A stretch of DNA of 5,822 bases from positions 1-5,822 of IMG/VR virus record IMGVR_UViG_2724679238_000006, one strand, 5' to 3'. The notes beneath the pieces are model-generated. The model was not told the DNA's origin. It did not search any database and saw only the letters and a list, made by a program, of their open reading frames with translations. This document shows, piece after piece, positions 1-5,822 of this stretch; the first letter of the stretch is position 1, and every line of letters begins with the position of its first letter. This DNA comes from a virus. Its lineage: Duplodnaviria > Heunggongvirae > Uroviricota > Caudoviricetes. Made by a program: the position numbers and the translations under genes.

Positions 1-32
1 CGGGCTGTCATAACACTGTGTTACCTGGCTAA

Positions 33-632
33 TCAGAATTTATAACCGACACCAACGATGAAACTGTTGGTACGCCAGTCACCGCTGCCGGAGCCTTCAT
101 AAGCAATATCAATGGCCACGGATTCGGTCGGGTTAAACTGCACGCCAGCCCCCCACGCCAGAGACCTGTTGCTGTGGCGACCGTCATCACTTCCGGTCAG
201 CACATCGTGCGTTTTCCCCTTGCTGTCAGTTACGCGGAGATAATCCCCGGAGAAAGTCGACACACGGCTGTAAGCCACACCCGCCATCGCATACGTGCTG
301 AACCATTCATTCACGCGCACAGATGGCCCCGCCATTACGCTGAACCAGCGGTTACGCACGGAATCTTCATGCCAGCGGGTATCGCTGTAACGGGTAAGCT
401 GGCGATTCTTGTCTCCTGCATAGCTGAATGACGTCACCAGCCCCAGCGTGTCCGTAAACTCATAACGGTATTTCACGTTAATGCCCTTCAGGTCATCACT
501 GCCTGGCATATCAGTATGGGTCTGAAGATACCCGGCGCTTAGTGTGGACTGATGCTCTGCTGCGCTCGCTGGCGTACCAGCGGCAACCAGCCAGACTACT
601 GCGGACAGAATAACAGCACATAATTTACGCAT
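33..632 (-). CDS. lom: Lom outer-membrane protein (Ail/Lom/OmpX/PagC family beta-barrel)
   Basis: 199-aa ORF with N-terminal signal peptide ([24 protein letters not shown]) and C-terminal ...[26 protein letters not shown] ending in aromatic Phe, matching the lambda Lom C-terminus as recalled. ATG at 632-630 is preceded by GAGAGG about 7 nt upstream on the minus strand. Lies immediately downstream of J, as in lambda. Confidence 0.9.
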
Positions 633-653
633 AATTACCTCTCGCTTTTCTGC

Positions 654-682
654 AATAAAAAAGGCGCCATTTCTGGCGCCCG
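654..682 (-). terminator. Candidate rho-independent terminator between J and lom
   Basis: Perfect 6-bp GC stem GGCGCC (663-668) / GGCGCC (675-680) with a 6-nt loop. On the minus strand it is followed directly by TTTTTTATT (complement of 654-662). It starts about 20 nt after the J stop codon (703-705). Confidence 0.5.
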
Positions 683-702
683 TTATTAGGGTTATAAATA
701 TT

Positions 703-3700
703 TCAACGGATACTGATGCCGGAAGCCGCTTTTTTGGTCACAATCACCGTACAGTCGGTGATATTGCCTGCCCCCTGATTCCCTTTCTGGAAAATCTTAA
801 ACTCCAGAGTGACGCTTCCCCTGCCACTCGGCATATCAATAACCGCACTGTAACTACCGGGAATGGCCCCTTTAGTTTCTCTGGATGCGATTAATACGCC
901 GTTTTTGCGAACTTCAAAACCATAACCCGTGTATCGCGTGCCTCCGGGGTTATTTCCGCTCCCCGGATCGGTATACGCTATACCGTTAAAAATAATGGGC
1001 GGAATAATGATTTGACGGTCAAAGTTATGATCATCGCTGATGGTGACTGTAACCGTACCGCCTGGTGTTTCCGTGTTACCCCACGTACCGACTTTTTTCG
1101 GGAAGGCTTTTGATACAGCTTTAACGAAATCCCCTCTGACCTGGGTCGCCTCCAGCATGCCCTTAATCGTACAGTTCTCACTTATCGTGACATTGTTGAG
1201 CGTTCCTGAGTTCGCATTCACGTTACCGCTGATATCAGCGTTTTTCGCCGTCAGCCGCCCGTCCGGTGTCAGAGAAAATGCCGGAGGATTGCCGCCGCTG
1301 GTGATGGTCGGGGCCGTCAGACGCTTCAGGAACACGTCGTTCATGAATATCTGATCGCCCTGACCAACAAACATTGGTCGTGTGTTGCCATTAGACGGAT
1401 CAATAAACGCAATACGGTTAGCGGCGACCAGAAACTGGCTCAGCTTGCCTTCTTCCGTGTCCTCCATGCTGAGGCCAATACCCGCGACATAATGTTTGCC
1501 GTCTTTGGTCTGCTCAATTTTGACGCCCCACATGGCATTCCACTTATCGTTGGCGTCCTGCCACTCTTTCGAAAACTCCTCCAGTCTGCTGGCGTTATCC
1601 TCCGTCAGCTCGACTTTTTCCAGCAGCTCCTTGCCGAGATGGGATTCGGTTATCTGGCCTTTGAAAAAATCCAGGTAACCTTCCGCATCATCGCTCGCCT
1701 GACCGACAGCCTCCACGAATACCGATTTGCCAACGGTGTTCACACTACGGATATAAAAGTAATAATCATGGCCCGGTTTGATATTGATACTAGCGGCTAT
1801 CCAGTACATCCCCGTGCCAAGATAGCGCGCGCTGGTTTCAACCTGCCGGATATCGGCAATCCGCTTTTCCGAAAACCAGAACTCAAACTGTACCGTCGGG
1901 TCATAAACTGCAAGATGCGGAGTGGCGGTTATCTGAAAATAGCCCGGCGTCAGCTCAATCTGTGACGGCGCTGCCGGTGCGGCAATCCTGAACGATACCG
2001 ACGCCGGGTCGCCCTGCTGTCCCCACGCATTTACCGCCCGGACTGTCAGCCTGTAGTTCCCCAGCGCCAGTTGCCTGAAACGATATTCGGTTTCCGTCGT
2101 CCGGGCCGTGCTGACCAGCCGCTCACTGCCGTCATCCGCTGCCACGGTCAGGCGAAGCATAAAGCTCACCCCCTTCACCACCTTCGGCGTGTCCCAGCGC
2201 GCCAGCACCTGATATTCCCCGCTGTCTGCCGAGACTTCGGCGGTCAGGTGCTGCACCGCTGGCGGCGTGACACCATTCACCGTGCCGCTCTGGTCGCCGT
2301 CAAAGTGCGCCCCGTTATCCACGATGGCTTCTTTTTCAGGCACATGCTGCACGGCAGTGATGGCATACGTGCCGTCGTCGTTCTCACGGATACTCACACA
2401 GCGGAACAGGCGCTGGCGCAGCGTCGGCAGCTTCAGCCCACACACACTGTATCCGGCAACGCCGTCAGGAACCCGGCTCACTTTCACCTGCACGCCGTCG
2501 GTGACGGACTGGACCTCCACGCTGACCGGACTCCCCGTCCCATCGACCAGGCTTATCAGTGTGGTGCCGGAGGCTGGCAGCGTGATTTCACGGTCGAGCG
2601 TCAGCGTCCGGGTCTGGCTGTTCACCGCCAGCACGCGACCACCGATGCTGATACCCGCATAGTCATCATCGCAGATTTCAATGACGTCTCCCGGCACATG
2701 GCGAAGCCCTTCTGCACCCACGCTGAAGTCCACGGTCTGCGTTTCCAGCAGTTCCGTTTTAATCAGCCACAGCCCGGCGCGGTGCGCCTGCCCCCGGCTG
2801 GTACAGCCAAAGGCATCCATCTTCGTGACGTTACGACCGTAACGGGCAATGGCCTGCGTGTCCTCCACAAGCTCTGTCGCCGTCTCCCAGCCGTTGTCCG
2901 GGTCAATCCAGTTCACCTCAACGGCGTTATGGCGGTCCTTCAGGGCGCTGAAGCTGTAGCGGAACGGCGCGCCATCATCCGGCATCACCACATTACTGCG
3001 GTTATAGGTCCACACCTTATCCGACGGTCGGTCCTGCACGAACGTCAGCGTCTGCCCGTTCCATACCGGCATACAGCGCATCGCCGAGCAGAAATCACTG
3101 AGCACATCCCACGCCCGGCGCTGCGTGGCCAGGTACGCATTACAGGTGATGCGCGGCTCCGTGCCGCCAGAGCCATTCGGTACCGACTGGTCGCAGTACC
3201 GACCGATGGCATACAACGCCCATTTGTCCACATCAGCTGCACCAAGACGTTTCCCCATGCCGTAGCGCGGGTGGGTCAGCATGTCCCACAGACACCAGGC
3301 CATGTTGTCGCTGTATGCCGGTTTAAACGTTCCGTCCCAGATACCGCTGTATTGCCGCGTCTGCGGGTTATAGTTCGACGGCACCTGCAGAATGCGCCCG
3401 CGCAGATGATAATTACGGCTCACCTGCTGGCTGCCAAACTGTTCCGAGTCCACCTGCACGCCGACCAGTGCCGTGTTCGGGTAGCACTGTTTCACATCGA
3501 TAATTTCGGTGTATGACGACCAGAGCGTTTTGTTCTGCAGCTGGTCTGTGGTGCTGTCCGGCGTCATCCTGCGCAGCCGGATATTGAACGGGCGCGGCGG
3601 CAGGTTATCCACCACTACCGAGGCCAGATACTGCGAGGTGGTTTTGCCCTTAATGGTGATGTCTTTTTCCGTCACCCAGCCACCATTACGTTGTATCTGA

Positions 3701-4116
3701 ACCAGCAGGCGAACTTCCGACGGATTCCGGTCCCCCTTTGAAGTGGTTTCCACCAGTGCCTGCACACCGAAGGTAAAGCGCAGACGGTCGATGTTTGCCG
3801 ACGTGATGGTCCGGGTAATCGGCGTGTCGTACTTCACCTCCGTACCCAGCACCGTCTCGGAGCTGGAGGATTCAAATCCCTCCGGCGGTGTCTGCTCCTG
3901 CTCACCTGCCCGGAACACCACCGTGACACCGGAGATATTGGTATTCCCCTCACTGTCCAGCACTGGCGTACTGTTCAGCAGCACACTTTTTAATCCATCC
4001 ACCGGACCTTCAATCGGCCCTTCACTGATGGCATCGATCACACTCAGCAACTGCGTGGATTTCAGGTTGTCCTTCGCTTCGCGCGGGGTATGCCCCTTAC
4101 TGCCACCTTTACCCAT
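703..4116 (-). CDS. J: Host specificity protein J (central tail fibre / tail tip protein), lambda gpJ family
   Basis: 1137-aa ORF. The N-terminus [44 protein letters not shown]... is nearly identical to lambda gpJ as recalled (lambda J is ~1132 aa), and similarity runs through most of the length. The last ~157 aa are clearly diverged but still alignable. Follows I and precedes lom as in lambda. Confidence 0.95.
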
Positions 4117-4249
4117 AGATAATTCCCGAAACAGTAATCAATTTTATGCGAACCATATAACGACCGCTTGCAACAAAAATGCATCTGTTGTATTTCATTT
4201 GTTAAAACTTAAATCACCTTGATTAACAACACGAAATGACGGGGTATTT
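4117..4249 (+). promoter_or_regulatory. Putative sodC promoter/leader region (AT-rich intergenic)
   Basis: 133-bp AT-rich spacer between the divergent J start and sodC start. Best sigma70-like candidate by eye is -35 TTGCAA (4168-4173), a 17-nt spacer, and a weak -10 TATTTC (4191-4196). A GGGG Shine-Dalgarno-like element sits at 4241-4244, ~6 nt before the ATG at 4250. Hexamer assignment is tentative. Confidence 0.3.
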
Positions 4250-4771
4250 ATGATAAAAAAAATACTTGCTGTAACTGCGCTACTTAGTGGAGCCGTAATG
4301 GCTGATACAATGACGATCCCTGTAAATCTCGTTTCCTCAGAAGGAGTAGGGAAAAATATAGGGGAAATAACTATTTCAGAAACCAGCTACGGATTGCTGT
4401 TCACTCCTCATCTGAAAGAACTGCCACCAGGGTTACATGGCTTTCATATCCATGAAAATGCCAGTTGTAATCCCGGTCTGATTAATGGAAAAAAAGTGCC
4501 AGCTCTTGCTGCCGGTGGGCATTATGATCCTGAACAAACAAATAAACATCTTGGGCCGTACAATCCGGAGGGCCATCTGGGTGATCTACCAGCACTCTAT
4601 GTCAACTCAGAAGGAAATGCAGAAAACCCGGTTCTGAGTCCAAAAATAAAAAAAATAAGCCAGATAAAAGAACGGGCGATCATGATTCATGCCGGAGGGG
4701 ATAATCATTCCGATTCACCTGCTCCTCTGGGGGGTGGGGGCGCAAGACTGGCATGCGGAATAATTAAATAA
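4250..4771 (+). CDS. sodC: Periplasmic copper/zinc superoxide dismutase (Cu,Zn-SOD), prophage-encoded
   Basis: 173-aa ORF with a Sec-type signal peptide (MIKKILAVTALLSGAVMA, likely cleaved before DT). Hallmark Cu,Zn-SOD motifs are present: HGFHIHE (Cu His ligands), AGGHYDP (bridging His), GHLGDLP (Zn ligands), IMIHAGGDN (Cu His), GGGGARLACG (conserved Arg plus disulfide Cys, partner Cys in ASCNPG). Closely resembles E. coli SodC and Salmonella prophage SodCI as recalled. Confidence 0.95.
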   Translation: MIKKILAVTALLSGAVMADTMTIPVNLVSSEGVGKNIGEITISETSYGLLFTPHLKELPPGLHGFHIHENASCNPGLINGKKVPALAAGGHYDPEQTNKHLGPYNPEGHLGDLPALYVNSEGNAENPVLSPKIKKISQIKERAIMIHAGGDNHSDSPAPLGGGGARLACGIIK

Positions 4772-4786
4772 CAAACAGCCTAAAGC

Positions 4787-4812
4787 AATCACCGTCATAG
4801 CTGGCGGTGATT
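4787..4812 (+). terminator. Strong stem-loop 16 nt downstream of the sodC stop; possible sodC transcript terminator or stabiliser (no U-tract)
   Basis: AATCACCGTCA (4787-4797) pairs with TGGCGGTGATT (4802-4812): 11 bp including one G-U pair, with loop TAGC. It is not followed by a T-run on the plus strand (ATCAGCGACC). The stem ends 1 nt before the I stop codon (4814-4816) on the other strand. Confidence 0.3.
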
Positions 4813-4813
4813 A

Positions 4814-5455
4814 TCAGCGACCAATAACCACAACCTGACCACCATCCCCCTCGTCTGCCGTGCTGATCTCCTGAGAGACCACACGTGACCCCACGCGCAT
4901 TTCACCGTACAGAACAGGCAGAACATTGCACTGGGCAACCATGTTGTCCAGTGACGAGAAATACGTGTTCTGCTTACCGTTATTCGTTGTCTGTGTTCGG
5001 GGAGTTTTGGGTCTGGGGGCCAGCATCTGTGCAACACCGCCAAGCGTCATACTGGCACCGAGAGAAAACAGCAGATTACTTGCCATAATTCCCACCCCAG
5101 GCATCCATATAGCAACCGCCATAACAGCTGCGCCCAGCACGGCCTGAAACACGCCGCCACTTTTGGCTCCCGCCAGGCGCGGCACAATATGGATCACGGC
5201 ACCATTTGCCAGCGGTTCATTAAGACGGGCTGATAATTCAGTTTCACCTGTATCACGCCCGGCAATGCGTACCTGATACCAGCCGTCGCTCAGTTTCTGA
5301 CGAAACGCCGGGAGCTGTGTGGCCAGCGCCCGGATGGCTTCGGCCCCCGTTTTCACACGAAGGTCGATGCGGCGGCCAAATCGTTGTAAATCCCCGTAAA
5401 GGCAGATTCGCGCCAGGCCCGGTGACGCCAGAGGGAGTGTGTGCGTCGCTGCCAT
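4814..5455 (-). CDS. I: Tail assembly protein I (lambda gpI family)
   Basis: 213-aa ORF. The N-terminus MAATHTLPLASPGLARICLYGDLQRFGRRIDLRVKTGAEAIRALATQLPAFRQKLSDGWYQVRIAGRD and the C-terminus ...NGKQNTYFSSLDNMVAQCNVLPVLYGEMRVGSRVVSQEISTADEGDGGQVVVIGR are near-identical to lambda gpI as recalled. Its start overlaps the 3' end of K, as in lambda. Confidence 0.9.
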   Translation of the reverse strand: MAATHTLPLASPGLARICLYGDLQRFGRRIDLRVKTGAEAIRALATQLPAFRQKLSDGWYQVRIAGRDTGETELSARLNEPLANGAVIHIVPRLAGAKSGGVFQAVLGAAVMAVAIWMPGVGIMASNLLFSLGASMTLGGVAQMLAPRPKTPRTQTTNNGKQNTYFSSLDNMVAQCNVLPVLYGEMRVGSRVVSQEISTADEGDGGQVVVIGR

Positions 5456-5822
5456 TTGTCGGTATACCTCTCTCGTTTGCTCAGTTGTTCAGGAATATGG
5501 TGCAGCAGCTCGCCGTCACCACAGTAAATGGCGGCATGATTCGGCACCGATGAACCAAAACAGCACAGCAGCACATCGCCCGGCTGCGCCGCTGACAACG
5601 GCACCTGATACAGCCCCGTTGCCTCCAGATTATCCAGATAGAGATTCTGACCGTGACGCCACCAGTCATCCTCACGATGAAAATCCGGCATCTCAATCCC
5701 CGCCAGATGATAAGCATCCCGGAACAGCGTGTAACAGTCCGTCACCCCGTGCTCAAAGCGCCGCCCGGTGAGATGCGGCACACAGCGGAATTTATGAATC
5801 TCACCCCGGCAGACCAGCCACC
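5353..5822 (-). CDS. K: Tail assembly protein K (lambda gpK family; NlpC/P60-type domain), 5'-truncated by the window edge
   Basis: The reading frame is open to the window end. The codon at 5781-5779 is GTG (internal Val, shown as M in the ORF track), and upstream codons translate to ...WLVCRGEIHKFRCV-PHLTGRRFEHGVTDCYTLF..., matching lambda gpK as recalled. Contains NlpC/P60-like Cys (DCYTLF) and His (NHAAIYCGDGELLHH) motifs. Stop codon at 5353-5355. Confidence 0.85.
   Translation of the reverse strand, partial: WLVCRGEIHKFRCVPHLTGRRFEHGVTDCYTLFRDAYHLAGIEMPDFHREDDWWRHGQNLYLDNLEATGLYQVPLSAAQPGDVLLCCFGSSVPNHAAIYCGDGELLHHIPEQLSKRERYTDKWQRRTHSLWRHRAWRESAFTGIYNDLAAASTFV

Follow-up and report, generated by a model that had tools for sequence, protein, structure and literature searches.

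What is a superoxide dismutase gene doing between two tail genes of a lambda-like phage, and how did it get there? This question is raised by a stretch of 5,822 nucleotides of viral DNA (IMG/VR virus record IMGVR_UViG_2724679238_000006, positions 1 to 5,822; Caudoviricetes), the whole of which is called the window below. Between its tail genes I and J lies an AT-rich island (4117–4813) that carries sodC, a gene for a Cu,Zn superoxide dismutase. Our analysis indicates that this island is very probably a lysogenic-conversion cassette, or moron, in a lambda-like prophage of Escherichia albertii that also carries NleG effector genes. I and J are adjacent in close relatives, and the composition of the island differs from that of the surrounding phage genes, as is expected of a moron.

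The open reading frame (ORF) at 4250–4771 on the plus strand encodes a periplasmic Cu,Zn superoxide dismutase precursor of 173 aa plus a stop codon and is recognised by both Sod_Cu and SodC profiles. It scored 113.3 bits against Pfam Sod_Cu (PF00080; cut-off, 28.9), the search by which a first-pass annotation of this DNA had proposed that the gene be checked. Scores were 214.4 bits against the NCBIfam SodC equivalog (NF007628; cut-off, 165) and 253 bits against phrog_1975, a "superoxide dismutase precursor" of the category moron. Matches in PDB to the SodCI structures 6D52 and 1EQW extended over the whole mature chain (E = 5e-68 to 6e-68). The protein scored 231 bits against SodCI and 191 bits against the monomeric E. 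coli SodC, and it has motifs in common with the dimeric enzymes. Alignment with eight relatives placed H66, H68, H91, H100, H109, D112, H147, C73, C169, and R166 in invariant columns. From knowledge of the family and homology to SodCI (1EQW), we take H66, H68, H91, and H147 to be the Cu ligands and H91, H100, H109, and D112 to be the Zn ligands; C73 and C169 are presumably the disulfide pair and R166 the catalytic arginine.

The N-terminus, encoded at 4250–4303 (plus strand), was predicted by inspection to be a Sec signal peptide, MIKKILAVTALLSGAVMA, that would be cleaved before D19. Its n-region is basic and is followed by a hydrophobic core; V-M-A precedes the cleavage site, after which the mature protein would begin with DT. 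The peptide aligns with the signal of SodCI, which is cleaved between SAMA and EN, and the mature 1EQW and 6D52 chains begin at query residues 19–20. Judged by its sequence, the ORF is a complete and exportable Cu,Zn superoxide dismutase precursor with a full active site. The first-pass annotation had described a complete secreted enzyme, and domain scores, signal peptide, and catalytic residues were all found to be present.

The island is sharply bounded. J starts at 4116 and the stop codon of I is at 4814, both on the minus strand, so 4117–4813 is exactly the whole I–J intergenic region, 697 bp in length. By comparison, 60 bp separate the I stop from the J start in lambda, in E. coli RMDEC465, and in phage PhiR49_1_star. 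The flanks of the window are 94–96% identical to those of lambda-type phages with an empty site, and this homology breaks off at the J start codon (CAT) on one side and at the I stop codon (TCA) on the other. Since it ends exactly at both codons, the island replaces the whole native 60-bp spacer, including its hairpin, rather than being added to it. The alignment of this junction to lambda that the first-pass annotation had called for thus sets the boundaries at the J start and I stop codons. The absence of the island from close lambda relatives was likewise confirmed: they have the same flanks about 60 bp apart, and no matching record spans the island.

Both tail genes are intact despite the island. 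The translation-initiation region of J is now supplied by the island (4117–4140, minus strand), which reads GTTTCGGGAATTATCT before the ATG; these ~20 nt would provide the ribosome-binding region of J. As read from the alignment, the J leader in the window resembles that of Fels-1 more than that of lambda. In the 60-bp I–J spacer of lambda (L014:1446-1505), a conserved hairpin of high GC content precedes a T-run on the late-transcript strand, AAACCGCC-NNNN-GGCGGTTTTGTC; it also occurs in L015, L016, L033, and L001 (near 5857–5900). This hairpin is kept in Fels-1 and in loci with a lipoprotein insert, described below, and is lost in the window and in an Stx2a-converting phage.

The composition of the island also sets it apart. 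Its GC content is 0.423 (0.331 in the 133-nt leader and 0.443 in the sodC coding sequence), while that of the remainder of the window is 0.564. The minimum outside the island was 0.482 among 3,732 windows of 697 bp. GC content at third codon positions (GC3) is 0.322 in sodC versus 0.678 in J, 0.565 in I, and 0.643 in K. In sodC, AAA encodes 12 of the 12 lysines and ATA 8 of the 15 isoleucines, and CCG makes up 0.21 of the proline codons versus 0.80 in J. The comparison of GC and codon use between sodC and the tail genes, another of the checks proposed, therefore revealed a strong deviation in both GC and GC3. The first-pass annotation had reported an AT-rich island of ~700 bp interrupting the I–J junction, with about 38% GC in a sampled stretch. 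Both statements hold: the island is 697 bp long with 42.3% GC, relatives have a short spacer, and values of 0.355–0.38 are found at 4101–4400. Its figure of more than 60% GC for the flanking tail genes was overstated, as the adjacent 200-bp windows have 0.535–0.575 and J overall 0.569, and only central J exceeds 0.60. Neither an equally long spacer in the relatives, where it measures 60 bp, nor a uniform GC content was found, a combination that had been named as grounds for abandoning the reading.

sodC is the sole plus-strand gene in the window. It is antisense to the tail operon, diverging from the start of J and converging on the stop of I, an orientation of which the first-pass annotation made no mention. 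Because it is antisense to all its neighbours and to the late operon as a whole, sodC should not be co-transcribed with the tail genes and should require a promoter of its own, which would lie in or just upstream of its leader. This leader (4117–4249, plus strand) is AT-rich, with 33% GC, and has a GGGG run resembling a Shine-Dalgarno sequence 7–10 nt before the ATG. Over its proximal ~55 nt, it can be aligned with the leaders of L017 and L018, the nearest alleles. At the other end of the cassette, a stem-loop at 4787–4812 (plus strand), with an 11-bp stem and the loop UAGC, ends one base before the I stop codon. Its folding energy is −15.9 kcal/mol (z = −3.7), and none of 200 shuffles folded as well. 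The hairpin is kept 3′ of sodC in L017 and L018, where one stem pair, U·G in the window, is U-A in L018 and C-G in L017. As its conservation extends to contexts other than phages, the hairpin moves together with sodC rather than with the phage. The upstream AT-rich region (33.1% GC) and downstream hairpin attributed to the gene by the first-pass annotation are thus both present.

Several results weigh against taking the island as a functional conversion cassette of familiar type. A strict scan of the leader for sigma-70 promoters gave no site; under relaxed settings, 79% of shuffles did as well as the best candidate. Two regulators were considered, as sodC of E. coli is repressed by FNR and sodCI is activated by PhoP. 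One FNR box with two mismatches was found in the leader (4219–4232), and the window contains four such sites versus 2.1 expected; one PhoP box with three mismatches was found at 4189–4205, with five matches versus 2.8 expected. Both were rejected as chance matches. The terminator scan did not pick up the 3′ hairpin, which lacks a U-tract and is therefore not a canonical intrinsic terminator. Frameshifts in homopolymers affect 5 of 23 islands, which means that sodC is not intact everywhere unless these are sequencing errors. Moreover, sequence identity to the characterised prophage enzymes is only 58–66%.

Other searches of this region gave little. The only terminator-like call lies inside the sodC coding sequence on the minus strand (4515–4499) and occurs at chance rate. 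A search against Rfam gave two sub-threshold chance matches in the window and none in the island. No integron attC-like or other site-specific recombination signature was seen by eye at the ends of the cassette.

The window is identical in sequence to E. albertii contig BBVZ01000039.1 (assembly GCA_001514985.1; locus L012). The exact same protein has already been annotated automatically in NCBI as "superoxide dismutase [Cu-Zn] SodC [Escherichia albertii]". The same island was found in more than 20 independent records, among them six complete chromosomes. In each of the six, sodC is part of a complete head-tail module of lambda type, after which come tail-fibre genes and several NleG genes. The flanks of the window match 4,300 of 5,426 complete E. 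coli genomes at 90–95% identity, and the island is covered by no record among these 5,426 genomes, nor by any phage record; with the island alone as the query, only sodC relatives at 65–68% were found. The origin of the window in E. albertii accounts for the lack of a near-identical island in complete E. coli genomes and phage records. Draft genomes labelled as E. coli do carry the allele, so this species is not free of it, although it is rare there.

Another accessory gene from the sodC family, 68% identical to that of the window at the nucleotide level, is present in 610 of the 5,426 complete E. coli genomes (for example, NC_010498.1:3245943-3246368). Chickens are the source of many of its carriers, and the gene is plasmid-borne in some cases (NZ_CP182388.1:3064-3489). 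Complete E. albertii prophages with the sodC of the window have two to four genes for NleG type III effectors downstream of the tail-fibre genes (L004:1263-4026; L005, L006, L008, and L009). The prophage of L009 has an additional gene of the IpaB_EvcA family. In that of L008, a gene for a 300-aa Macro-domain protein (L008:1858-2760; CP024282.1) lies between the side tail-fibre gene and the assembly chaperone gene.

Beyond its own 99% cluster, the nearest relatives of the window SodC upon BLASTP search had 73%, 71%, and 69% identity. The 73% allele (L017) adjoins a fimbrial usher operon, the 71% allele is found among CcdAB and TraD remnants (L018, L019), and a 66% allele is on an IncFII-type contig (L020). 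At the nucleotide level, the cassette of the window is 73–75% identical to L017 and L018, and its homology with L018 and L019 runs from within the coding sequence to the final base of the island. Similarly, the island of the Salmonella prophage Fels-1 is 86% identical over 699 bp to L020, which has a plasmid context, and this homology is limited by the lambda-type hairpin on the J side and by the I stop on the other. These alignments are evidence that sodC cassettes are common to plasmids and prophages.

We also surveyed the slot itself in the IMG/VR tail modules closest to the I protein of the window, taking the 78 for which the positions of both I and J could be established. The spacer was short in 67 of them, two had the sodC island described here, and nine had a different insert. 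The latter is 474–475 bp long, AT-rich, and in sense orientation, with the lambda-type hairpin kept next to J. It encodes a 112-aa lipoprotein (MNKTILFCTIIALTGC...) with an LTGC lipobox, which belongs to phrog_914 (function unknown) and has no match in Pfam; it could be a protein of the superinfection-exclusion type. The insert was found in L096, L098–L101, L105, L106, L109, and L110, and lies ~80–500 nt upstream of the J start at L096:1355. The presence of other cargo in 9 of the 78 modules shows that the I–J junction accepts insertions repeatedly.

These data bear on whether sodC entered the slot once or many times. A single ancient insertion into an ancestral lambdoid tail module, followed by co-divergence, would make the three types of island (those of the window, Fels-1, and Stx2a phages) vertical descendants, and the empty sites would represent losses or the older state. 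The identical slot and antisense orientation in the three phage groups are what such a history predicts, and SodC of the window and that of Fels-1 are 66% identical, much as their I proteins (67%) and the N-termini of their J proteins (70%) are. However, the I protein of the window is 84% identical to that of lambda, and the first 300 aa of its J are 98% identical to lambda J; lambda has no island, yet SodC of the window is at most 66% identical to any other phage SodC. Outside the coding sequences, the islands of the window, Fels-1, and the Stx2a phage show no alignment to one another; their J-side borders differ as well, and only Fels-1 has the lambda-type hairpin beside J. Furthermore, the closer relatives are found outside prophages (L017 and L018 for the window, L020 for Fels-1), and the same slot has received the lipoprotein cargo. 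A single origin may have been followed by replacement of the flanks through recombination. On balance, we consider one ancient insertion possible but rather unlikely, and we read the data as suggesting that different sodC cassettes have been captured or exchanged at this junction more than once.

A further alternative is that the cargo is decaying or switchable, being silent, on the way to a pseudogene, or turned on and off by slippage. Among 23 islands, there are eight substitution sites in 697 bp, of which four are synonymous, three are non-synonymous, and one is non-coding. This number fits a recent spread and is too small for judging selection or constraint. Length differences were found in two tracts. 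An A8 homopolymer in codons 2–5 (4255–4262, plus strand) is A7 in four of the 23 islands (L021, L023, L024, and L039), a frameshift by which the signal peptide is lost. A G6-T-G5 tract (4729–4740, plus strand), encoding the conserved LGGGG, reads G12, G14, or G15 in three other records. The G14 and G15 forms (L031 and L039; 2 of 23 islands) are frameshifted and lose Arg166 and Cys169. Either type of length change, in the A or in the G tract, ruins the protein. Truncated forms have been deposited from both E. coli and E. albertii, and enterobacteria typically use H-NS to silence foreign AT-rich DNA, both of which speak for a decaying or switchable gene. Against this, the ORF is intact with all catalytic residues in the window and in 17 other islands, and errors in homopolymer length are common sequencing artefacts. 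A widespread loss of the signal peptide, as the 157-aa forms in the databases would imply, was mostly rejected, as 7 of 10 such loci turned out to be start-codon miscalls over an intact A8. The differences in tract length could reflect phase variation, gene decay, or sequencing error, and we regard decay or switching of the cargo as improbable.

We also venture, as a speculation that is more probably wrong than right by a wide measure, that the I–J junction is a preferred landing site for sodC cassettes of ~0.7 kb (leader, gene, and 3′ hairpin), which an as yet unrecognised mechanism would move among plasmids, genomic islands, and prophages. At least three unrelated cassettes, all antisense, would have used it, and the one in the window might perhaps be turned on and off by slippage of the A8 and G tracts.

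It is very improbable that the island mainly serves the phage, with antisense transcription of sodC or the hairpin tuning J expression or late read-through and the dismutase being secondary. The native I–J hairpin and T-run of lambda are indeed missing, and the sodC hairpin sits one base from the I stop codon. On the tail-gene strand, however, this hairpin is not exceptional (z = −1.16), it accompanies sodC in non-phage contexts, and a fully conserved enzyme active site would be needless for a purely regulatory role. An assembly artefact or chimeric contig, which a short draft contig of 5.8 kb might suggest, is refuted for practical purposes by the same junctions, at 98–99.8% identity, in the six complete chromosomes, other drafts, metagenome assemblies, and IMG/VR contigs.

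As a conversion cassette, the island would work as follows. The lysogen presumably expresses sodC at a stage when the late genes are silent. The precursor would be exported and cleaved after Ala18, and would bind Cu and Zn in the periplasm. There, the enzyme would dismutate superoxide from outside the cell, such as that of the host oxidative burst; this chemistry is indicated by the conserved active site. A benefit to the host bacterium may be inferred by analogy with SodCI of Salmonella and SodC-F of O157. As the tail genes are intact and the ribosome-binding region of J presumably comes from the left end of the island, the phage should still be able to build tails. With regard to its origin, the cassette is a discrete unit of ~0.65–0.7 kb whose closest relatives are found outside prophages. 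Non-homologous or short-homology recombination is the most likely route by which it came into a lambda-type tail module, and those variants whose borders fell at gene boundaries would have survived.

The remaining genes of the window are all on the minus strand and form a lambda-like tail map. J (703–4116) is intact and encodes the tail tip and host specificity protein of 1137 aa, which scored 2267 bits against NF049904 (lambda_TipJ) and contains six J domains in Pfam. I (4814–5455), a tail assembly gene, has 213 aa in its longest ORF and matches PF06805 (Lambda_tail_I; 85 bits). These two matches establish the neighbours of sodC as the lambda tail genes I and J, in agreement with the first-pass annotation. 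I has been called as 180, 190, 197, or 200 aa by gene callers, depending on the record. Its overlap with K is 103 nt, the same as in lambda, and given this overlap the start that yields 213 aa is probably the true one. K (5353–5822; PF00877, NlpC/P60) is a tail gene cut by the contig end, with a length of 247 aa in complete loci. Located 3′ of J, lom (33–632) encodes an Ail/Lom outer-membrane protein (PF06316 Ail_Lom; 401 bits, full length); lom is the classic lambda cargo gene downstream of J. An ORF of 481 aa lies antisense inside J (2071–3516, plus strand). It is rich in Arg, His, and Ala, a composition expected for the reverse strand of a GC-rich gene, and is therefore taken as a non-coding artefact.

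E. albertii is an emerging attaching-and-effacing enteropathogen. By analogy with the known enzymes, a prophage that supplies both an extra periplasmic superoxide dismutase and NleG effectors could plausibly promote fitness or virulence, be it in the gut of the host or inside phagocytes. For phage biology, the locus is a clean example of cargo slot reuse with gene-boundary precision. What is new here is modest: a fourth lineage of prophage SodC, found in E. albertii, the exact replacement of the I–J spacer, and evidence for the sharing of cassettes between plasmids and prophages; there is no new class of system. No paper on an E. albertii prophage sodC was found in the literature.

Our comparison with known SodC enzymes showed that the window protein is 65–66% identical to SodCIII of Fels-1, 62% to SodCI of Gifsy-2, 57–58% to SodC of Stx2a phages, and 53% to the chromosomal SodC of K-12. 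SodCIII, SodCI, and the Stx2a-phage SodC are 60–62% identical to each other. The window SodC is thus as distant from the three named enzymes as those are from one another, which makes it a separate lineage of equal rank and not an ortholog of any of them. By sequence, it is a fourth lineage of prophage SodC, in E. albertii and so far uncharacterised, and is available for comparing dimerisation, stability, and regulation.

The chromosomal SodC of K-12 (b1646; PDB 1ESO) belongs to the same family, has the same length, and is likewise exported by a signal peptide. It differs in its motifs, with KGLEFSP and HEGPEGAGH in place of the YGLLFTP and HLGPYNPEGH of the window and phage enzymes. It is a core chromosomal gene product, monomeric and RpoS-dependent (PMC2569942).

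Gifsy-2 offers the best solved-structure match to the window SodC. Its SodCI, likewise a periplasmic Cu,Zn superoxide dismutase borne by a prophage, is encoded antisense to the tail genes and has all catalytic residues in common with the window protein. Unlike the I–J site of the window, the site of sodCI is between lom and L. For SodCI, and for SodCI only, a dimeric and protease-resistant form and a role in mouse virulence are known by experiment.

In the Stx2a-converting phage Stx2_EH1846, the order I, antisense sodC, J is found, as in the window. It too is a lambdoid prophage of Escherichia and has lom downstream of J, and prophages of its type with sodC carry type III secretion effector cargo, as those of the window type do. 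In contrast, it has a longer spacer (851 bp) and unrelated flanking non-coding DNA, and its enzyme is the most distant of the three phage enzymes. The Stx2a-phage SodC is presumably the O157 SodC-F1/F2. The prophage SodC-F of O157 is dimeric, more active, and more stable and protease-resistant than the chromosomal SodC, and it is expressed in log phase and also anaerobically (PMC2569942).

The closest phage-borne protein is SodCIII (STM0924) of Fels-1, where again the order is I, antisense sodC, J. Like the window, Fels-1 has an AT-rich cassette of ~0.7 kb with a 3′ hairpin and a relative in a plasmid context. It differs in that 34–35% of the residues are not the same, the leader and 3′ hairpin sequences are unrelated, and the lambda-type spacer hairpin beside J is kept, which the island of the window has replaced. 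Its host is Salmonella, and its tail genes have diverged from those of the window to the extent given above for I and the J N-terminus. The first-pass annotation had viewed sodC as lysogenic-conversion cargo of a known class rather than a new system, and the known systems agree with this view: Fels-1 and the Stx2a phages are direct precedents for both slot and orientation, Gifsy-2 has its sodC in another tail-gene slot, and SodC-F of O157 has been characterised (PMC2569942).

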